From contig JAUVZD010000006.1 of the NCBI GenBank assembly GCA_030602715.1, forward strand, positions 26,465 through 90,464: a stretch of DNA of 64,000 nucleotides. The letters are read 5' to 3'. Source of the DNA: Candidatus Coatesbacteria bacterium. Its GTDB lineage: Bacteria > RBG-13-66-14 > B26-G2 > JAUVZD01. This document shows positions 4,836-64,000 of the stretch, piece by piece. Positions within the stretch are counted from its first letter, which is position 1; every line of letters starts with the position of its first letter. The notes under the pieces were generated by a model, which worked only from the letters and a program-made list of their open reading frames with translations, was not told where the DNA came from and did not search any database. Made by a program: the position numbers and the translations under genes.

Positions 4836-5363
4836 TTGAGACCATCACAGGTTACATCCATGTTGGCTAAAGAACTGGTGGTGCAAGCCCTCCTTGTTGA
4901 GGGACGCAGTCTGTTGCTCACAGTTTCTGGAAGTTCCATGGAGCCCAATATTCTGGACGGTGATCTGGTGGATGTAGCGCCCATAGATGAAATCAGCAAA
5001 CTAAAAATCGGCGATGTGGTCCTGTTTGAGGAATATGGGGTGCTAATGCTTCATCGGGTTCTTAGGATTTATAGGAAAAGGGCACTTCTCAAGGGAGATG
5101 GAGCGTTGTTGAGCGAGGGAGCGGTCGCCTGGGACTTAGTTGTGGGTCGGGCGGAGAGCATTCGTCGGGGGGAGAGGGAGTACGACCTGAGGGGTTTGCG
5201 TGCAGGCAGTCGCGCCAGAGCCTGGGCAGGGATATCCCACCTGGTGGATTTTCTATTTAGATTGCTGGCGAGGATCAGTTGGGGGTTGGGGGGACGGGGT
5301 TCGTCAGCCCTGCGATGGGTCCTTCTCTTTCTTTCACGCATATTCAGATTGCCCTTGACTTGA
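4836..5363 (+). CDS. S24/S26-family peptidase-like protein (LexA C-domain or signal-peptidase-like Ser nucleophile motif)
   Basis: The motif TVSGSSMEPNILDGDLVDV resembles the GxSMxP…DGD catalytic region of the S24/S26 clan. The remainder is Arg-rich with no clear match. Confidence 0.35.
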   Translation: MRPSQVTSMLAKELVVQALLVEGRSLLLTVSGSSMEPNILDGDLVDVAPIDEISKLKIGDVVLFEEYGVLMLHRVLRIYRKRALLKGDGALLSEGAVAWDLVVGRAESIRRGEREYDLRGLRAGSRARAWAGISHLVDFLFRLLARISWGLGGRGSSALRWVLLFLSRIFRLPLT

Positions 5364-5431
5364 GCATAGAGCATTTAATATAATCAGTGGAAATGTATGA
5401 GCTTTTTGTAGTTTCACCGAAGGGGAATGCA

Positions 5432-6022
5432 ATGCGAATATCATTAATCCTGCTGGTGCTTATTTCAATTTTGAGCTGGGGAGGAGCTTATTGTGCACAG
5501 ATGGAACTTCCCCGCACAGCTGTCCTGGGGGAGGAGATCACCCTTGCCCTCACTCTTGATGGAGCGGAGGTATGTCTGGTCTTTACCCCGTATGAAGGCG
5601 GGGAGGCTTTCACCTACTCCTGCTTCTTTAGGGACGGGACCTTCCCCATAGATACCGGCAGATTTGCCCCCGGCAGTTACCTTGTGGAGCTGAGGGATGA
5701 TGGCGACGGAGAAATCCTGGACAGCACTATATTGATTATTACCACTGAGCCGGTATTCCAGTTAACCGACATCTATACCCGCCCCAATCCTTTTGACCTG
5801 ACCGCTACCAACCCCAGAGTTGAGTTCGTCAATGTTCCTCCCTGGGCTACGGTGCGCATCTTTGACCTGGGCGGGGAGTTGGTCATCAACTTGACCGGTA
5901 ATCCCATCTTGTGGGACGGTCGCAACCAGGACGGAGATTTTGTCAGCGCCGGTAGCTACATCTACCTGGTGGAAGATGAAAGCGGTAATGAATTCGTGGG
6001 AAAGATGGCGGTGTTAAAATAA
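5432..6022 (+). CDS. Secreted protein with a C-terminal FlgD-Ig/T9SS-type sorting-like domain
   Basis: ATG at 5432 is preceded by gaagggga. Signal peptide MRISLILLVLISILSWGGAYC. C-terminus …RPNPFDL…VRIFDLGGELV…GDFVSAGSYIYLV. The track ORF from 5387 is an in-frame upstream extension. Confidence 0.5.
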   Translation: MRISLILLVLISILSWGGAYCAQMELPRTAVLGEEITLALTLDGAEVCLVFTPYEGGEAFTYSCFFRDGTFPIDTGRFAPGSYLVELRDDGDGEILDSTILIITTEPVFQLTDIYTRPNPFDLTATNPRVEFVNVPPWATVRIFDLGGELVINLTGNPILWDGRNQDGDFVSAGSYIYLVEDESGNEFVGKMAVLK

Positions 6023-12678: not shown

Positions 12679-14223
12679 TTGAGAGTTCGGGGATATATCA
12701 AGTGGCTGGTTGCGGTAGGAATATTTCTGGCTCTCTTGCTTCTGGACTATTTCCAGAGGGGAGAGGTGGAAAAACTGTCCCGGCAAAACCTCACCCTTGC
12801 CAGTGAGAAGGTAACCCTTTCTGTGGAGCGCTCCCTGACCGAGCCGGCGAGTATCGTGCGCCGCTTGCTGGGGATTGTGGAGACCTTCGGGATGGTTGGA
12901 CAGAAGGAGTATGAATCCCCGGGCATAAGCGTCGCAGAGGATTATTCCTTCGTCGTCCAATCGGGGATAATCACCCAGGACAATCAAGTGTTGGCGGAAT
13001 ATCCCCACCATCCCTCCTCGCTTAACGGTGAGACCGTCGCCAAAATGCTCCATTCCGGTGGAAAGACCTTCGTCGGCGGTGAGGGGAAGGTGCCGGTATA
13101 TGTGAGCGACCTTACCGAGACCGCCGACGATAAAATCCTCCTTTACAGCGCCCGGATGCGAGAAGAGAAGGAAGTCGGCTATCTCTATCTGGCTGTCTCC
13201 GTTGCCGACCTGATTCCCCAACCACCGGCTTTGAGTGAGGATGAGGGCTATTGGATGGCAATATACGATTCCAGTAGACAAGAGGTCCTCTCCCACCGAA
13301 TGGACCAAGCCCAGGATTTGGGCATCTCCGCCGAACTTTTTAGCGGGGGGGAGAATCCCTGGACTCTCAAGGTGGGCTATGTCTCCGGCAGTAGCAAAGG
13401 TTGGGTTGTGGGTCGTTTCGTCAACTTTACCTTCGGCATCCTGGTTGCCATCATCATCTGGATTTTGATATTCTTGCTGGACCGCCGGGCTAATACCCTC
13501 GCCTCTGCAGTGAAGAAACGCACCCAGTCCCTGGAGAATGTCAACAAGGAGATGGAGGAGTTCGTCTATGTGGTCTCCCACGACCTGAAGTCGCCGCTTA
13601 TCACCATCCAGGGGATGATAGACCTGTTTGTGGACTCACCTCAGGGGAAGAGGCTCTCCAAGCGCAGTCGGGAGTTTATGGAGACCATCAAAGCAGCCTC
13701 GGAGCGGATGGGGGACCTGATAGGCGACCTGCTTCAGCTTTCCCGGGTGGGCAGGTTTGATGTGGAGACGGAGCAAGTCAACATCGCCGAGGTAGTGGAA
13801 GTGGTCTTCTCCGAGGTGCGCACCGTAGGTGTGAAATACCGCTTCAACTTCTCCATGGAGGGCAATTTCCCCACTCTGCGAGTAAACCGCCGGCGCATCT
13901 ATCAGATATTCGCCAACTTAATCAATAATGCGGTCAAGTTCATGGGTGAGGACAACACCGAGCCCTATGTGCTGGTCACCTGTGAGGATAAGGGCGGGTT
14001 CTACGAATTTCGGGTCAAGGACAACGGTCCGGGAATAGACCCCCGTTACCATAGGAGAATCTTCGGGGTCTTCAAGCGCCTGCACGGTCGGCGGGTGGAA
14101 GGCACCGGCATCGGTCTGGCTTTCGTTAAAAAGATTGTGGAAACGCAGGGGGGTATCATCTGGGTGGAGTCGGATGTCGGCAGGGGCGCCGAGTTTATCT
14201 TCACCCTTCCCAAAGAGGATTAA
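12679..14223 (+). CDS. Sensor histidine kinase (periplasmic sensor, TM, HisKA, HATPase_c)
   Basis: H-box VSHDLKSPL, N-box/G-boxes (NLINNAVKF, DNGPGID, GTGIGLA). Two TM segments flank a periplasmic domain of about 200 aa. Confidence 0.8.
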   Translation: MRVRGYIKWLVAVGIFLALLLLDYFQRGEVEKLSRQNLTLASEKVTLSVERSLTEPASIVRRLLGIVETFGMVGQKEYESPGISVAEDYSFVVQSGIITQDNQVLAEYPHHPSSLNGETVAKMLHSGGKTFVGGEGKVPVYVSDLTETADDKILLYSARMREEKEVGYLYLAVSVADLIPQPPALSEDEGYWMAIYDSSRQEVLSHRMDQAQDLGISAELFSGGENPWTLKVGYVSGSSKGWVVGRFVNFTFGILVAIIIWILIFLLDRRANTLASAVKKRTQSLENVNKEMEEFVYVVSHDLKSPLITIQGMIDLFVDSPQGKRLSKRSREFMETIKAASERMGDLIGDLLQLSRVGRFDVETEQVNIAEVVEVVFSEVRTVGVKYRFNFSMEGNFPTLRVNRRRIYQIFANLINNAVKFMGEDNTEPYVLVTCEDKGGFYEFRVKDNGPGIDPRYHRRIFGVFKRLHGRRVEGTGIGLAFVKKIVETQGGIIWVESDVGRGAEFIFTLPKED

Positions 14224-57511: not shown

Positions 57512-57922
57512 CTCCTTTTTGCCTTTATGGTGCGAAAACTATCTTGCGAGACTCGCATAGCCCGGGGGCGGAGACGTGGATAAAATAAACTCCAGACTCC
57601 AGCCCCAGGTTGTTGAGGGGAAAAAATAGAAATGTACAGGTGAATCGGTAAGAGAGCAGGTGAAATGCGGGCTTTATCTTTAATGTCCTGCTGTTCCTTA
57701 ACATTACAATACCCACTTGTATGAGGTTATAAATCGCATATTTGGGAAATATTTCACATTATTAAACTTTTCTAACATAATAGCACAGATTAGGTCAAGT
57801 TGTCAAGTGTAAAAAGAAAAGAATGTGAGAAAAAGTCTTAGTTTTTTCTAGCTTTCCCGGCAATGATAAAACCGAGGGGCGAGTCCTCGGCTGAAAATGT
57901 CATGATTTGCTTAAATCTTATC

Positions 57923-58906
57923 CTACCTCCACACTCCGGGAATCTCCCTCCCGCAGAAGAGGCATCTGCCCTCAGCGGTCAGCTTCACCTCGCCGATGTT
58001 GTAGCCCCTGCGCCTGATGATGGTGGCACCACAGCCGGGGCAGTAGGTGGACTCTCCGGGGTGACCGGGCATGTTGCCCACATAGACATAGTTGTGTCCC
58101 ACCTCCAGGGCGATATTGCGGGCTCGGGTGAGGGTGGAGGTTGGGGTGGGGGGGAGGTTGCTCAGTTTGTAGGTGGGGTAGAAGCGGGAGAGGTGGAGGG
58201 GGATGTCGGGACCCAGCTCGTCCAGCACCCAGTGGAAGTAGTCGTAGAACTCCTCGTCGGTGTCGTTTAAAGTGGGGATGATCAGATAGGTCAGCTCCTG
58301 CCAAACCCCTTCCTGCTGGATTGTCTTTATAGCCCTCTGCACCGGGGGCAGTTCCCCGTCGCATATCTCCTGATAGTATTCGTTGCGGATGGACTTCAGG
58401 TCGGTGTTGGTGGCGTCAATGAACTGACAGAGCTCCCTTAGAGGCTTCTCGTCTATGAAGGCGGCGGTGACCAGAACATTGCGCAGTCCCTCACCGCGAG
58501 CCAGGCGGGCGGTGTCTTTGACATACTCATAGAAGACCACCGGCTCGGAGTAGGTGTAAGCCACCGAACCGCATCCGCTAGCTTTTGCCTCGGCGACCAC
58601 ATCGGCCGGCACCAGGCGGAAGTTTCTGGTGTCCTCCGGGTTGGATTGGGAGAGCTGCCAGTTCTGGCAGAATTTGCAGTGCAGGTTGCAACCGGCGGTG
58701 GCGATGGAGAATATCCAGGTAGCCGGCAGGAAGTGGAAGAGGGGTTTCTTCTCCATAGGGTCAATGTTGGCGGAGCAAGCCTCTGCCCAGACCAGGGTAT
58801 GGAGCTCCCCGCCCACATTCACCCGCACCCTGCAGTCGCCCCGTTCATATTCTCGCAGTTCGCAGTGGCGGGGACAGAGCAGACATTGGACTTGTTTAGT
58901 CGCCAC
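57923..58906 (-). CDS. Radical SAM enzyme, PflA-like (AmmeMemoRadiSam-system type)
   Basis: N-terminal CLLCPRHCELREYERGDCRVR Cys cluster followed by GCNLHCKFCQNW (CxxxCxxC). 327 aa. Confidence 0.6.
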   Translation of the reverse strand: MATKQVQCLLCPRHCELREYERGDCRVRVNVGGELHTLVWAEACSANIDPMEKKPLFHFLPATWIFSIATAGCNLHCKFCQNWQLSQSNPEDTRNFRLVPADVVAEAKASGCGSVAYTYSEPVVFYEYVKDTARLARGEGLRNVLVTAAFIDEKPLRELCQFIDATNTDLKSIRNEYYQEICDGELPPVQRAIKTIQQEGVWQELTYLIIPTLNDTDEEFYDYFHWVLDELGPDIPLHLSRFYPTYKLSNLPPTPTSTLTRARNIALEVGHNYVYVGNMPGHPGESTYCPGCGATIIRRRGYNIGEVKLTAEGRCLFCGREIPGVWR

Positions 58907-59135
58907 CTTCCACCTCCAGCGGTTTCCAGTGCTCCGCCGGATGGAGCTCCAGATTTCCCTTCTCCAGAGCCTTCAGGAACTGGTCCTTGCGCTCCTCGGT
59001 CAGTTGCGCCTCGCGCTCCTCAGGCGTGGGCGGAAAGACGCTGTCATATATCGCCCACCAGGCAAGGGCGACCACGGAGACGATTATCGCCAGAAGGGTG
59101 AAAGCTCCGATGATATTCTGTAAACGCCTGCTCAT
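58896..59135 (-). CDS. Small single-TM membrane protein (hypothetical). Its stop overlaps the rSAM start.
   Basis: 79 aa, one hydrophobic helix, translationally coupled to the downstream rSAM gene on the minus strand. Confidence 0.3.
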   Translation of the reverse strand: MSRRLQNIIGAFTLLAIIVSVVALAWWAIYDSVFPPTPEEREAQLTEERKDQFLKALEKGNLELHPAEHWKPLEVEGGD

Positions 59136-59179
59136 TATCTATATTATACAACAAATTTTAACGCAGATGGGTTCATTTT

Positions 59180-60511
59180 TCATGATTTGATGGCTCCCCT
59201 GGGGCAGACCCGGAAGCACTCCCCGCAACGGAGGCAGAGGGTGGGGTCAATGTAAGGGAGCGTCTCTCCCCCGGTTATGCTGATTGCCTCCACCGGGCAT
59301 GCGGGGATGCACCGTTCGCATAGGTCACAGTTTTTATCCTTGCGCACCGCCACCGGAGCGAATGCCGAACAGGCTCCCAGGATAGCTCCCACGCCACAGA
59401 GATAACGGCACCAGAGATAAGGGTATAGTAAGCTTGCGGAGAAGATGGCTATGGTCAAGATGACCACAGCGAATTTAATTCCGGTGAGATAGAGGATGGT
59501 GAAGGGTTCCCAGCCGGCGGGACCCACCCCGCCCACATGGAGGCATAAGAGCACGACCAGTATTAACAGGATGTATTTGACCGCACCGGCAGAATGTTTT
59601 GCCCAGCTGGGTATTTTCGCCTGGGGCGTCTTCAGGCGATAAGCCAGGTCCATCACCAAGCCCAGTGGACAGAGGTATCCGCAGTAGGTTCGTCCGAAGA
59701 TAGTCGTAGTAAGGAGGGAGAGGAAAAGAAGCAGGTAGAAGATGGGGATGACCAGCAGGGGTTGGGGCTTGCCCATAAGCAGGTAAGCCAATCCCTGCAG
59801 GGAGAGAAAGATTCCCCAAATGAGTGCCACTAGAATGGTGAAGGTGAGGATTGATAGGTAACGGAGCAGGCGGCTTTTTGGTTTAAGTTTTGCCAGGGAG
59901 AATGCCCCGATGAAGATCAGGAAAACGACGGAGAGCTTGATGATGGTCGCTGTCCGGTTGCCCCCTTCGGCCGAGAAAGAGACGTCCCTCTTGAGAACTC
60001 CGGTGGATATGACCGCGGCAATCTCTTTAGTGCCCAAGACGATCGCTTGCCAGGTCACCGTGGCTCGGCTCACACCGTCCAGGTCATCACCGATTGCGAA
60101 TCTGTCGCTTATGCTCTTTCCGCTCAGGGCGGAGAAGGCTTTGGACTCCAGCACCTTATATAGGTAGTTGGGGGTCTCAGCGTTGCCCAGCACCACCACC
60201 CCAGCCACCCTTCCCTCTACATCCAAACCCACTACCAGCTCCATAGCCCCTCCGTAACCGCTCACCTCTATACCCAGGGCGGAGCTGGAGGCGGAGTAGC
60301 CAAGGAGCTCTCCTTCTCCATCGTAGACTCCATAGATACCCGCTATATCGGGATAGGGTTTCCCCTTGCTTGCGCCGGGGAAGGGGAGCAGGGCGGATTC
60401 TTCAGAGAAGGGCGGGGGTTCATCTTCGGGGAAGAAAAGCCCCCAGAACAGGGGCAGAGCGGCGAGCGCCACAAGGAAGAGGGGCTTTAGGCGGGAGAGT
60501 TTCATGGTCAT
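59180..60511 (-). CDS. NosR/NapH-like membrane flavo-iron-sulfur protein (FMN-bind domain, TM helices with CxxxCP motifs, C-terminal 2x[4Fe-4S] ferredoxin)
   Basis: N-terminal signal/TM and FMN_bind-like …DLDGVSRATVTWQAI…. Membrane region with TYCGYLCPLG and WCRYLCGVG. C-terminal CDLCERCIPACP and CLRCGECFRVCP. Confidence 0.6.
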   Translation of the reverse strand: MTMKLSRLKPLFLVALAALPLFWGLFFPEDEPPPFSEESALLPFPGASKGKPYPDIAGIYGVYDGEGELLGYSASSSALGIEVSGYGGAMELVVGLDVEGRVAGVVVLGNAETPNYLYKVLESKAFSALSGKSISDRFAIGDDLDGVSRATVTWQAIVLGTKEIAAVISTGVLKRDVSFSAEGGNRTATIIKLSVVFLIFIGAFSLAKLKPKSRLLRYLSILTFTILVALIWGIFLSLQGLAYLLMGKPQPLLVIPIFYLLLFLSLLTTTIFGRTYCGYLCPLGLVMDLAYRLKTPQAKIPSWAKHSAGAVKYILLILVVLLCLHVGGVGPAGWEPFTILYLTGIKFAVVILTIAIFSASLLYPYLWCRYLCGVGAILGACSAFAPVAVRKDKNCDLCERCIPACPVEAISITGGETLPYIDPTLCLRCGECFRVCPRGAIKS

Positions 60512-60588
60512 AGAGATTTTACGGAAGGGGCGAATACAAAATTATTTAGCTTTTGGTCTCAGGGGATTGAGTCCATCAAGGGGTAAGG

Positions 60589-61254
60589 CTATCGCTCACC
60601 GGTCTGTTCACCGCTGTCCTTCTCCTTTTTCTCCTCCTTCACCTTCTCCTCCTCATCCCGCCCCCGTCTTTTCTCCTTTTTGTATTCTTTTTCTCGGCGC
60701 CAGGCGGAGGTTTCCTTTTGAAGTAAGTTGTAGATAAACCCCACCGCCAGGCCTCCCAGCAGGCAGGCGACCACTCCGCCTAGAGCCCATCCGCCCAGCA
60801 CGGTGCGGGGGAACTGGGTGTGGATGGCTAGGAGCGCCCAGACGGGAACCTGTCCCAGTAACCAGGCGAAGAGACCGAAGGTCAGACCGGAGAAAATCCA
60901 GTGGCGAGGAAGTGATTTTCGCAGATAGACATAGCCGAGACCCCAAAGGAAGCCGAGGATGATATTGGCGCCGAGCAGGGTGATGTAGTTACGCAGTCCG
61001 CCGGTATTGGCGAAGAGCTGAGGTATAAATGCCAGTTCCGGGTTGTCCATCAGCCTTTTCAGTTGGGCGGAGTTAATGACCTCGGTGGAGACCTTCTGGA
61101 AATAATCCGGGGCGACGATATCCTTCCAGATTATGATGAAGGCGATTATGGTGATGGTAATGATGATGCCGGCTACAATCCCGGCAAGTATGCCGTTTAG
61201 GAATGAGCGCATCTTTACCTCCTTGTCGGGGGGATGTCGTATGAATATTAGCAT
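60589..61254 (-). CDS. Membrane protein, hypothetical (4 TM segments, Lys/Glu-rich C-terminal tail)
   Basis: Hydrophobic core and a charged EKEYKKEKRRGRDEEEKVKEEKKEKD tail. The start is possibly at the internal MRSF (near 61212). Confidence 0.35.
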   Translation of the reverse strand: MLIFIRHPPDKEVKMRSFLNGILAGIVAGIIITITIIAFIIIWKDIVAPDYFQKVSTEVINSAQLKRLMDNPELAFIPQLFANTGGLRNYITLLGANIILGFLWGLGYVYLRKSLPRHWIFSGLTFGLFAWLLGQVPVWALLAIHTQFPRTVLGGWALGGVVACLLGGLAVGFIYNLLQKETSAWRREKEYKKEKRRGRDEEEKVKEEKKEKDSGEQTGER

Positions 61255-61324
61255 AGTTTATCCATTATGTCAATTGTGGCGAAATCCACTGGTCTAACCA
61301 ACCTGACTGTGTTAGATTCTATCT

Positions 61325-62239
61325 ATGGGCGAAGCCGAAACCTGGCCGGCTTATCTGGAGCTTTTTGAGGAGGGGAGGCTGGCGGAGCTTGCCGATAAGT
61401 TCACCGCCCGCCTCTCCGAATGCGACCTGTGCCCCCGCCTCTGCAAGGTGAACCGCATCGGAGGGGAGCTTGGCTTCTGTCGGGGAGGGGAGAGGGCGCT
61501 GGTGGCAAGCTATGGACCCCATTATGGCGAGGAGCGTCCCCTGGTTGGGGTTCGTGGTTCCGGGACCATCTTCTTCGCCGGCTGTAATCTGGGCTGTATA
61601 TTCTGTCAGAACTACGACATCAGCCACGGCTTGGCTGGAAAAGAATCATCCCCCGAGGAGCTTTCTGAGATAATGCTCCAATTGCAGTCCATCGGCTGTC
61701 ACAATATCAACCTGGTGACCCCCACCCATTTTCTCCCCCAGATTCTCTCCGCTTTGGTCCTCGCAGTGGAGGGGGGCTTACGCCTTCCGCTGGTCTATAA
61801 TTGCGGTGGATATGAGCTTGCCGGGATTTTGCGGGAGATGGATGGCGTAGTTGACATCTACATGCCCGATTTCAAATATTGGGACGAGGAGGTGGCGGAG
61901 AGCTATTCTCAGGCGCCGGACTATCCACGGCGCGCCCGGGACGCTCTGCGGGAGATGCACCGCCAGGTGGGTGATTTGCAGGTGGATGATGGGGGCATCG
62001 CCCGACGGGGGATTATCCTTCGCCATCTGGTGATGCCCGAGGGCATCGCCGGAACCGCCGAAGTGGCTGAGTTTGTTGCCGAGGAGATATCAAAAGGCAC
62101 CTATTTTAACCTGATGGACCAGTATTATCCCACCTATAAAGCCTCCCAGTATTCCCAGCTCTCCAGAAGGATCAACCGGGATGAGTGGAATGAAGCCCTT
62201 CAGGAGGCACGGCGGGCCGGCCTGCGCCGTTTTGACTGA
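61325..62239 (+). CDS. Radical SAM enzyme, PflA-like (AmmeMemoRadiSam-system type), paralog of the 57923..58906 gene
   Basis: CDLCPRLCKVNRIGGELGFCRGG N-terminal Cys cluster followed by GCNLGCIFCQNY. Same architecture as the minus-strand paralog 2.4 kb away. Confidence 0.6.
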   Translation: MGEAETWPAYLELFEEGRLAELADKFTARLSECDLCPRLCKVNRIGGELGFCRGGERALVASYGPHYGEERPLVGVRGSGTIFFAGCNLGCIFCQNYDISHGLAGKESSPEELSEIMLQLQSIGCHNINLVTPTHFLPQILSALVLAVEGGLRLPLVYNCGGYELAGILREMDGVVDIYMPDFKYWDEEVAESYSQAPDYPRRARDALREMHRQVGDLQVDDGGIARRGIILRHLVMPEGIAGTAEVAEFVAEEISKGTYFNLMDQYYPTYKASQYSQLSRRINRDEWNEALQEARRAGLRRFD

Positions 62240-62369
62240 GCGGGGTATCTCACCTCACATATTCGTCCCTATATCCCTGTCCTATGCTATAATCCTGAAA
62301 AGCCAGGTCCTTTGTTTGCAGGCGACCCCGCCAAAGGCGGGGAATCCTCGCCTGCTGGAAGCCTTCCCT

Positions 62370-62388
62370 TTATCTCCTCCTCCGTCAG
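62370..62388. repeat. Direct repeat copy 1 (ttatctcctcctccgtcag), identical to 63586..63604
   Basis: Exact 19-nt match (about 22 of 23 with flanks) with the 3' end of the methyltransferase ORF. On the minus strand it encodes a relic …DLTEEEIKGRLPAGEDSPP… peptide. Confidence 0.6.
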
Positions 62389-62458
62389 GTCACTAATAGA
62401 CAATAATTATTATTAGTATTGTTCATACACCTATTCGATAATGACTCTTGCGACGGGG

Positions 62459-63559
62459 CTATTTATCTTTTTTTCTAGGCTCACGATTATCACAACCAGA
62501 AATACATTTTTCTATGTCATTTAATCCAATTCCTCCATTCCCAATCTGACAACACATAGAATGTTTAACGAATTCTGGGCCCTGGAAACTCCTTGTGATT
62601 ATTACATTAATGTGAAAGTTCTTGCAATTTACTTCATCATGAATTTTAGATAATTCACATTTTTTACATACATCTGTGCTTATAACATTTGTCTCACCTG
62701 GAATTCTAAAATTATCACGATACTCAGCTTTTTCACATACTAAATCATCTTTTCTTTCATACCTATACGGACAATAAGAAACTTCTCTTTTGATTTTTTC
62801 TTTATCGTATGAATAATATTTTGACCTTTTAACTTCATGATACTTATACCAATCATCCGGGTCATGTCTTAAAAAAGATAGTAATGTTCCCTTTAAAAAT
62901 TTTTCTTTTTTAATTCTATATAAATCAATTGGACCATCATAAAAATATGCTTGTTTTTCCGCTTGTAAAGACAAAGCTCTTTCCCAAATATATGTTAGCC
63001 ACACAATTGCCTCGTTATAATTTCTAAATTTCTCTCCTTTAATATTCATTTTTTGATTCAATGCCAAAACTTCCTCGTTTATAAAATTTGTGTAGCCAAT
63101 TGCTTTTACGTGATTAAAACCTTCTGATAAATCTGGAGTTATTTGACAATCGTAATGTCTCAAATTATTGTTATATTTACGTTTTCTTCCACTAATATAA
63201 AATCTTTTATTTTCTCTATCATATCCGCAATGCACAATATGAACAACATCATCTAAAGGTTCTTCCGGAAAGGTTTCTGAAAATACAATATCAAATCGTG
63301 ATGTTTGAATAGATAAACTTATAGTATTAGAAAAATATTTATCACCATATCTTTCCAGTATACGTTCTCTTGTATTTTCAATATGTTTGTCTATGTTTTT
63401 TCCACTCCAAGATGATAAACCTAATGTTGCAATAACATGGTTATCAGACCATTCATAAATTTTTTCACCTTTCTCATAGGTTCCATCACTATTTGAAATT
63501 AGTCTATCACTTGTAACAATTAATTCTTCCTCTGTTAAAACAGTGATAACTAATGTCAT
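62459..63559 (-). CDS. Hypothetical Cys-rich protein encoded in a strongly AT-rich block. A candidate restriction/defence effector partner of the adjacent methyltransferase.
   Basis: 366 aa, Lys/Tyr/Asn-rich, with a C-terminal Cys cluster (CPYRYERKDDLVCEKAEY…CKKCELS…CKNFH…CCQIGNGG…CISGC). Base composition is far more AT-rich than the rest of the window. Confidence 0.45.
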   Translation of the reverse strand: MTLVITVLTEEELIVTSDRLISNSDGTYEKGEKIYEWSDNHVIATLGLSSWSGKNIDKHIENTRERILERYGDKYFSNTISLSIQTSRFDIVFSETFPEEPLDDVVHIVHCGYDRENKRFYISGRKRKYNNNLRHYDCQITPDLSEGFNHVKAIGYTNFINEEVLALNQKMNIKGEKFRNYNEAIVWLTYIWERALSLQAEKQAYFYDGPIDLYRIKKEKFLKGTLLSFLRHDPDDWYKYHEVKRSKYYSYDKEKIKREVSYCPYRYERKDDLVCEKAEYRDNFRIPGETNVISTDVCKKCELSKIHDEVNCKNFHINVIITRSFQGPEFVKHSMCCQIGNGGIGLNDIEKCISGCDNREPRKKDK

Positions 63560-63562
63560 CTT

Positions 63563-64000
63563 TTAATCCACCCCCTCCACCACCCTTATCTCCTCCTCCG
63601 TCAGCCCATACAGCTCATAGACTAGAGCGTCAATCTTTTTATCGGTCTTCTTTATGGCGCGCTCCAGGCGGGTGCGGTCGGCGTCGCTCTTCACACCCGC
63701 AAGCCGTTCGTGGAGAGTGAGCATCTCCTCCACCAGCCCCACCATTCGGTCGTGTAGCTTCACATCATCTGGGTTTGTGAAGTCTATTGAGCGGATGGGG
63801 ATAGAATGAATTTCATACGTTGAAACAGTAGCAGTTCGATAATAGAAACCATACCAGAAATTTATCATCTTTGAATTTAATATGCCAGTTATGTATTTCA
63901 CATTTATATCATCTGGCACATTTTTTGATACATAACAAGTATCAAGCGCAAAAAACTGTTCATTATCATATCCAGCGATAATATTCCTACCACTCCTCCC
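63563..64000 (-). CDS. Partial (5'-truncated by the window) N6-adenine DNA methyltransferase of type IIG/Eco57I-like RM enzymes: target-recognition region plus the TaqI_C-type C-terminal helix
   Basis: C-terminal …IDALVYELYGLTEEEIRVVEGVD and upstream …ITGILNSKMINFWY… are hallmark segments of Eco57I/PglX-type methyltransferases. The minus-strand frame is open to the window edge (…GRSGRNIIAGYDNEQFFALDTCYVSKNVPDDINVKY…). Also carries repeat copy 2 at 63586..63604. Confidence 0.55.
   Translation of the reverse strand, partial: GRSGRNIIAGYDNEQFFALDTCYVSKNVPDDINVKYITGILNSKMINFWYGFYYRTATVSTYEIHSIPIRSIDFTNPDDVKLHDRMVGLVEEMLTLHERLAGVKSDADRTRLERAIKKTDKKIDALVYELYGLTEEEIRVVEGVD

Follow-up and report, generated by a model that had tools for sequence, protein, structure and literature searches.

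Target-recognition domain (TRD) swapping, target-duplicating insertion of restriction-modification (R-M) systems, HEPN genes lying beside R-M genes, and the orphan arrays of Rhs and contact-dependent inhibition (CDI) systems are all known. In the model put forward for Rhs, recombination with circular intermediates creates arrays of displaced modules (PMC2935791); replacement of the TRD inside Type IIG genes has been described (PMC2853133), and HEPN genes linked to R-M systems have been interpreted as a second line of defence (PMC3710099). Here, a locus is described at the end of a 64,000-nucleotide (nt) stretch of contig JAUVZD010000006.1 from a Candidatus Coatesbacteria bacterium (the window), in which the 3' end of a Type IIG R-M gene is followed by an AT-rich gene of no known family and then by a short duplicated piece of the R-M gene itself. 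The interest of the locus lies in the family-wide pattern to which it belongs, as fragments of the conserved 3' tail of this gene also accompany assorted downstream cassettes at related loci. No description of a Type IIG gene whose own 3' end recurs as remnants between serial cassettes was found in open-access text, and such remnants are not mentioned in a 2025 R-M review.

The window holds two exact copies of the 19-mer TTATCTCCTCCTCCGTCAG, at 62370-62388 and 63586-63604, both on the plus strand and forming a direct repeat, which reaches 22 of 23 nt (62367-62388 versus 63583-63604) when one indel is allowed. At up to three mismatches there is no third match in the 64 kb, where 0.02 would be expected, and none of 100 shuffles attained two matches. 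On the minus strand both copies read LTEEEI, after which the upper copy continues as RVVEGVD* and the lower copy as KGRLPAGEDSPPLAGSPANKGPGFSGL*. The GC content is 27-29% over 62400-63560, 48-56% over 63500-63799 and 31% over 63800-63999, and the remaining window is at 50-58%. The GC content at third codon positions (GC3) is 0.17 in the cassette open reading frame (ORF), 0.28 in the TRD part and 0.71 in the tail, compared with 0.68-0.78 in the neighbouring host genes. The 19-mer pair, the drop in composition, the LTEEEI reading of both copies, the GC-rich island and a 366-amino-acid (aa) ORF without a family had been noted in the original prediction, and all of these are confirmed, as is the foreign composition of the ORF block. 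The 19-mer, with only two copies in 64 kb, is not the common repeat that it might have been. The relic frame proposed to follow the lower copy has no similarity to the tails of the family, and a strong hairpin region is found there instead.

The Logan assembly of run SRR14872667 (L001), which is independent of the NCBI assembly and reaches 814 nt past the window end, shows no mismatch with window positions 57966-64000 across 6035 nt. Because the two agree base for base, the arrangement is not the artefact of one assembler, and the junctions carry no repeats long enough for a false assembly join.

The GC-rich island is the 3' end of a gene whose full-length product (P0122) has 964 aa; it was found, on a 155-kb NCBI contig, via the 90%-identity cluster of the Logan product. 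Its domains are HSDR_N (residues 27-126), MmeI_Mtase/Eco57I/N6_Mtase (384-716) and TaqI_C (770-888), followed by a helical C-terminus. The nuclease-type domain, which lies beyond the window, is matched over residues 27-126 by HSDR_N (E 7e-8, above the cutoff) and by HSDR_N_2, and the protein contains the nuclease motif ADYCF…FIVETK, of the PD-(D/E)xK type. The motifs DPACGSGSF (I) and FDAVIGNPPY (IV) are those of gamma-class N6-adenine methyltransferases, with scores of 1.3e-37 for Eco57I, 2e-22 for N6_Mtase and 6.9e-10 for MmeI_Mtase, and the C-terminal half matches REase_MTase_IIG of PADLOC at 7.7e-40. The TaqI_C match to residues 770-888 has an E value of 1.2e-16, and the in-window part by itself gives 2.8e-11. 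Some 20 full-length relatives are known at 46-56% identity. By its sequence, P0122 is an intact single-chain Type IIG enzyme with nuclease, methyltransferase, TRD and helical tail, and not the stand-alone Eco57I-type methyltransferase for which it had been taken. Since it carries its own nuclease domain, a separate restriction partner is not needed; the Cys-rich 366-aa ORF, which had been suggested as a candidate for that part, is linked to no nuclease fold. A 5'-truncated gene was also considered, the Logan contig ending in GC-rich hairpins before FDAVIGNPPY and giving a 368-aa product, and was ruled out by the 964-aa protein, in which the hairpin DNA before FDAVIGNPPY is translated in frame as GGGGGGPAPQHAGPAPQHAG. 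The loop that holds this segment also has insertions in several relatives.

When P0122 is divided into three pieces, with cuts at GNPPY and where the tail begins, and each piece is compared separately with relatives, a mosaic is seen. Against the clade, the backbone, made up of the nuclease and methyltransferase parts, is 61-67% identical, the tail 65-76% and the TRD 23-36%. The TRD is 50% identical to P0003, a stand-alone methyltransferase on a contig of uniformly 27% GC, and the tail, when set against that of the best TRD relative, shows only 43% identity. At the DNA level, the similarity of the locus to the loci of relatives is limited to the tail (63563-63790). This tail, of about 75 codons, comprises the helices …LVYELYGLTEEEI… after TaqI_C and corresponds to the segment that is repeated downstream in relatives; an unusual fold or attC-like imperfect palindrome was not found in its DNA (z = 0.06 versus shuffles). 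The same mosaic is visible between the related loci L083 and L085, which are 85% identical up to the NPPY codons, and have no DNA similarity through the TRD; where the tail begins, identity returns, at 80%, and continues into the first downstream gene. The GC3 in L083-L085 is 0.80-0.88 in backbone and tail and 0.32-0.41 in the TRD and the first downstream gene. By these comparisons, TRD and cassette are exchanged independently in the relatives, and the TRD of the window is, as judged by identity and composition, an import from an AT-rich lineage. What had been read as a single AT-rich block of ~1.6 kb consists of two modules, the cassette (62389-63562) and, from 63791, the TRD; the AT-rich stretch 63791-64000 is by its predicted domain the swapped TRD of the Type IIG gene, distinct from the bracketed cassette.

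The recurrence of the tail was examined in 74 loci with at least 300 nt downstream each, namely the window locus, three close relatives and 70 metagenome loci of the broader family, the latter being among the matches listed in a metagenome scan (33-40% identity); loci of the close clade were fetched protein by protein. The last 250 nt of the gene were used as the query, and segments of equal length from before NPPY, from the middle of the backbone and from the TRD served as controls. Extra tail copies are present in 14 of the 74 loci (34 high-scoring segment pairs), and 34 of 34 are downstream and direct, compared with extra copies in one of the 74 loci for each of the three control segments. 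By our own arithmetic, a downstream location in 14 of 14 loci has p ~5e-4, with 58% of the flank lying downstream, and a direct orientation in 14 of 14 has p ~6e-5. Self-comparison gives one downstream copy in L083, about six in L084 and four in L085, these copies being 23-236 nt long and 79-100% identical; eight copies lie within 5.6 kb in L100, and the later-fetched loci L166, L169 and L172 also hold arrays. The remnants are 5'-truncated at varying points, most extend through the stop codon, and TRD sequence is rarely part of them. In L166, two copies are ~97% identical up to LTE(E/K)EI and then read RVVEGEKN* and IAIVEKEN*, and this break in identity points to a crossover at the same motif as the 19-mer of the window. 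A single tail is found in L173 and L174, the latter having no cassette; both are at other chromosomal sites than the window locus.

The window is the minimal case of this family pattern, with one cassette and one remnant of 19-22 nt, and its 19-mer is a short stretch of the conserved 3' tail of the Type IIG gene that is present twice. The tail homology of the lower copy begins abruptly at 62388. The relatives do not share one arrangement of uniform composition, an outcome that would have spoken against an insertion: their cassettes differ, L174 has none, and their composition is not uniform. The earlier suggestion of a site for cassette exchange, or hot-swap site, thus stands insofar as the tail recurrently joins different cassettes in relatives, and its mechanistic part is treated below as a proposal.

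The cassettes of related loci measure 0.3-2 kb and are mostly AT-rich. The recognizable families among them are included in the table, those of defence type being the HEPN, NYN, GIY-YIG and SocA_Panacea genes, and many cassette proteins have no known family. In 24 of 77 loci, an ORF of 80 aa or more has its start no further than 20 nt from the stop codon; in the window this gap is 3 nt. The flanked block of the window (62389-63562) has 28% GC, and its 366-aa ORF has nine Cys among the last 100 residues. No family match for this ORF was obtained in Pfam, PADLOC, PHROGs, NCBIfam or the PDB. Nor was a relative found when 5.8 billion clustered proteins were searched, when all of 1.84 billion representatives were scanned with HMMER, or at any related locus compared. 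The chance of a 1101-nt open frame in DNA of 29% GC is ~1e-13 by our own arithmetic, and the ORF is therefore, or recently was, coding; as read from the frame, it is very unlikely to be anything but a real gene, present or recent. Judging by its location, its composition and the genes with which it is associated, it may be an accessory gene of defence or conflict. A resemblance of its N-terminus (MTLVITVL…VTSDRL…) to Ntn/HslV-type hydrolases was rejected, there being no Pfam match at E <=10 and a BLASTP E value of 8 against an HslV sequence; the similarity to the N-terminus of an ORF of L084 is not significant either. The ORF was also considered as a silent alternative TRD, and this was discarded, as it has its own ATG, lacks methyltransferase and TaqI_C motifs and is unlike any TRD.

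Features of the locus in the window and predicted families in cassettes of related loci
Feature	Position	Strand	Remarks
Host radical-SAM gene bounding the locus	61325..62239	+	Pfam Radical_SAM; GC 0.58, GC3 0.69
GC-rich hairpin GCAGGCGA-CCCCGCC-AAA-GGCGGGG-aatcc-TCGCCTGC	62318..62355	.	Between remnant and convergent radical-SAM gene
Lower repeat copy, tail remnant trimmed on both sides	62367..62388	-	19 exact nt, 22/23 with one indel
AT-rich spacer from ORF stop to lower repeat, distal end of cassette	62389..62458	-	From sequence
Cassette gene, 366-aa orphan ORF	62459..63559	-	ATG 3 nt past the Type IIG stop codon
Type IIG R-M gene (P0122), last 145 codons and stop	63563..64000	-	From translation; gene extends to ~66457
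Conserved GC-rich C-terminal tail, …IPIRSIDFTNPDDVKLHDRMV…IDALVYELYGLTEEEIRVVEGVD*	63563..63790	-	GC 0.56, GC3 0.71, host-like
Upper 19-mer copy, LTEEEI inside functional tail	63586..63604 (22-mer 63583-63604)	-	From sequence
TRD module, 3' part	63791..64000	-	GC 0.30, GC3 0.28; module from ~64738 (FDAVIGNPPY) to ~63791
HEPN_Cthe2314	Cassettes of L083, L085, L172		
HEPN_LA2681 with TPR	Cassette of L116		
Two NYN, one GIY-YIG, IS200-like Y1 transposase	Cassettes of L100		
SocA_Panacea with partner gene	Cassettes of L100, L085		
Helix-turn-helix with Peptidase_M78	Cassette of L166		
DUF5677	Cassette of L125		

On balance, it appears fairly probable that the conserved tail acts as a recombination anchor for capturing and displacing cassettes. 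Incoming DNA consisting of a tail fragment and a foreign gene would recombine with the resident tail, in the simplest form through one crossover with a circular intermediate, the route put forward for C-terminal displacement in Rhs. The product would have an intact tail, the new gene right after its stop codon, and then a tail that lacks its 5' part and continues past the old stop codon into the earlier content. Remnants that are truncated at the 5' side and extend through the stop codon are exactly what a single crossover with a partial-tail circle predicts. Repeated rounds could build arrays, and recombination from tail to tail could delete or release a cassette. Replacement of the TRD would be an event of its own, a double crossover with one site in the NPPY region and the other in the tail. 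In the window, one capture event may have brought the AT-rich orphan ORF to its place, 3 nt past the stop codon, with the 19-22-nt remnant at the far end, and the ORF is predicted to be probably co-transcribed and translationally coupled with the Type IIG gene. A cassette-free allele would join …GAGGAGATAA directly to AGGGAAGGCTTCC, and a circle of cassette and tail fragment would join 62389 to 63585. No integrase is found among the annotated genes of L001 and of the related loci, and this, together with the lack of a fold in the tail DNA, means that a site-specific mechanism of the integron or phage type is not indicated.

Several points weigh against this role of the tail. At 19-22 nt, the remnant in the window is about as long as, or shorter than, the least that RecA-dependent exchange usually needs. 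Unlike most remnants, it is cut at its 3' side, and the part nearest the stop codon is missing. The 24 nt that follow the upper repeat and encode RVVEGVD* use GC-rich codons, while the simple model expects them to have arrived with the AT-rich cassette. The circular junction was not observed, and with a best neighbour-gene identity of 61% there is no close genome for a presence/absence comparison at this locus. The role of the orphan ORF has no support from homology, and its AlphaFold single-sequence model, with a predicted local distance difference test score of 33, is unusable. In addition, L172 has inverted tail fragments 7 kb upstream, and the tail copy of L167 lies upstream, being the end of a complete neighbouring gene; one mechanism therefore does not fit every copy.

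A rather unlikely alternative is that the remnants are eroded tandem Type IIG or methyltransferase paralogues and that the cassettes are old neighbours which were never captured. It would account for L167, where two adjacent genes have tails 97% identical, and for remnants that keep more than a tail: the L085 remnant at 13495-13869 retains ~130 codons, including part of the TRD, and that of L160 retains 97 codons. It accounts less well for the extra copies of backbone or TRD being confined to one of the 74 loci each, as against 14 of 74 for the tail, and for the ORFs between the remnants being intact. The deletions would also have had to end repeatedly within the last 200 nt, and homologous deletion between tandem genes would have left no remnant at all.

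Insertion by a site-specific integrase, with an att core in the LTEEEI codons, or by an IS200-like Y1 transposase acting on hairpins, the 19-mer being the core in either case, is similarly improbable. An att core within a coding sequence has a parallel in phage e14, which integrates in icd. The 19 exact nt with their sharp edges and the break of L166 at the same motif could be understood in this way, and Y1_Tnp genes do occur beside the gene in L085, as cassettes in L100 and L172 and in frame within P0096; similar CCCCGCC/GGCGGGG hairpins are also present at both ends of the AT-rich segment. Yet no integrase is encoded in the cassette or among the annotated genes of related loci, the start points of the remnants differ between loci, which does not fit a fixed core, and most loci have no Y1 gene, and the tail DNA is without hairpin structure. 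Both of these explanations are possible; in contrast, a coincidence due to a common motif, or an assembly chimera of AT-rich and GC-rich organisms, is very unlikely, for although LTEEEI is widespread in the methyltransferase superfamily and the contig is metagenomic, only 0.02 matches are expected even at three mismatches, two assemblies are base-for-base equal with junctions free of long repeats, and the same alternation of GC/AT/GC/AT, together with tail copies, is seen again in other samples and assemblies that are independent.

Other observations concern the composition and the coding of the anchor. In L083, L084, L085, L169 and L172-L174, on contigs of ~50-57% GC, the backbone and tail have a GC3 of 0.80-0.88 and the TRDs and cassettes of 0.3-0.4, and in nearly all 74 loci the GC content of the TRD is below that of the backbone. 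This contrast between anchor and modules may have its source in an AT-rich mobile pool or in GC-biased gene conversion of the recombining segments. The VVEG codons are retained as GTGGTGGAGGG, their third positions being G, in loci that are otherwise very AT-rich (L100, 8284-8296; L166, 6948-6958), and this retention may point to a DNA- or RNA-level constraint. GGAGG in these codons as the ribosome-binding site of a coupled gene is unsupported, a coupled gene being present in nine of 24 loci with GGAGG and in 15 of 53 without it. In L167 (1-133 and 1793-2042), the gene for P0003, the protein whose TRD is most like that of the window gene, begins 8 nt before the preceding gene ends, and the last 133 nt of that preceding gene are 97% identical to the tail of P0003 itself; the locus is thus a complete methyltransferase gene between two tail copies, followed by a SocA_Panacea pair.

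The hairpin at the lower end of the locus has a fold z of -3.85, and none of 200 shuffles is as stable. It contains CCCCGCCNNNGGCGGGG, which occurs once in the window. A canonical terminator is not recognized in this hairpin, and Rfam gives no match for it; neither promoter or terminator signals above background nor Rfam families are found. Just past the window end, positions 1-76 of L001 (~64739-64814) carry the GC-rich hairpins GCCCCGCCCCGCC-TAT-GGCGGGGGCGGGG followed by two copies of GTCCTGCCCCGCAACATGCGG, an element that lies directly before FDAVIGNPPY and is translated in frame. The CCCCGCC/GGCGGGG stem is common to this element and to 62326-62342 of the window, where it occurs only once in 64 kb, and by virtue of this stem the hairpins at the two ends of the AT-rich segment are similar. 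IS200-like Y1 transposase genes recur at related loci (L085, 5278-5907; L100, 9331-9957; L172, 12060-12503; L166, ~5190-5800). That of L166 is inside P0096, as an in-frame fusion at the loop before FDAVIGNPPY, matching the site of the hairpin insert in the window gene, and the N-terminus of P0012 has an apparent C-terminal remnant of a transposase at the same place.

The flank of the locus consists of genes at 57923-58906 (minus strand), 59180-60511 (minus strand) and 61325-62239 (plus strand), namely two radical-SAM-type genes and a membrane protein with FMN_bind and multiple 4Fe-4S motifs. The only other marked dip in composition within the last 10 kb of the window is a short low-GC stretch at 57600-57900 (0.35-0.37), just upstream of the radical-SAM-like gene at 57923-58906. 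Radical-SAM genes are also found near the Type IIG gene in L085, L169 and L173, and these are not orthologous to those of the window. A search for an empty site via the neighbouring radical-SAM gene returned the same contig only, the best genome relatives being 61% identical.

A wider proposal, possible yet doubtful, is that the tail is the platform of a recombinase-free, integron-like system. Tail-plus-gene units would circulate between distant hosts, perhaps as circles, dock by homologous recombination, ride on the transcript of the restriction gene, and be shuffled or shed between tail copies. Lineages would in this way gain changing second-line defence genes, among them the 366-aa orphan, and the GC3 contrast would record GC-biased gene conversion. 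If the tail of this widespread restriction-enzyme family is a general docking point, a gene between two tail copies offers a sequence handle for new defence genes in metagenomes, many of which would have no known family, like the 366-aa ORF. The logic of Rhs displacement would then extend from toxin genes to R-M genes, and homologous recombination by itself could build cassette arrays without a dedicated recombinase. The loci would also be a natural test case for why recombining conserved segments are GC-rich and exchangeable modules AT-rich.

When compared with described systems, the locus differs from a phase-variable shufflon of the hsdS type, which has inverted repeats within alternative specificity gene copies and a site-specific recombinase; here, the orientation of the repeats is direct, TRDs are missing from the remnants and there is no recombinase. 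The HEPN and abortive-infection genes in R-M operons (Anantharaman et al. 2013, PMC3710099) have counterparts in the HEPN genes directly downstream in L083, L085, L116 and L172, although the table of that study gives Cthe_2314 without a detected association and LA2681 with TPR only. That work concerns gene neighbourhoods and not a tail-remnant architecture, and the cassette gene of the window is not a HEPN gene and has no known family. With integrons, the locus has in common mostly single-gene, often promoterless cassettes in one orientation, a repeated separator, a fixed platform and a defence cargo. An integron, however, has IntI and attC palindromes, whereas no integrase is annotated here (in L001 and related loci), the repeat is a coding fragment (with the z of 0.06 given above) and the boundaries vary.

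The insertion with long target duplication described by Furuta, Abe and Kobayashi (2010, PMC2853133) also gives target-duplicating direct repeats of variable length and involves no mobility gene. In that case, the insert is an R-M system, the target is unrelated to it and the repeats exceed 30 bp; here, the target is the gene's own tail, the inserts are not R-M systems and they are serial at one anchor. The repeat of the window, at 19-22 nt, is under the >30 bp criterion, and the repeats of the relatives span 30-236 nt.

The pattern of the locus matches that of the displacement arrays of Rhs and CdiA (Jackson et al. 2009, PMC2935791; Poole et al. 2011, PMC3150448). In both, a GC-richer conserved region and AT-richer variable modules evolve independently, and arrays of displaced modules lie downstream of the full gene, all in direct orientation and each behind a piece of the conserved region. 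The origin proposed for both is also the same, namely homologous recombination with lateral, possibly circular DNA, as we infer it here. The two differ in what is joined to the anchor. In Rhs, a toxin tip is fused to the core and accompanied by an immunity gene; here, separate genes stand behind the stop codon, with no evident toxin-immunity logic. The anchor is the extreme 3' end of an R-M gene and the cargo is an assortment of defence-type and orphan genes, and the variable part of the gene, the TRD, is upstream of the anchor and would be swapped by a separate double crossover. The locus appears to work like an Rhs array and is not a member of the Rhs family.

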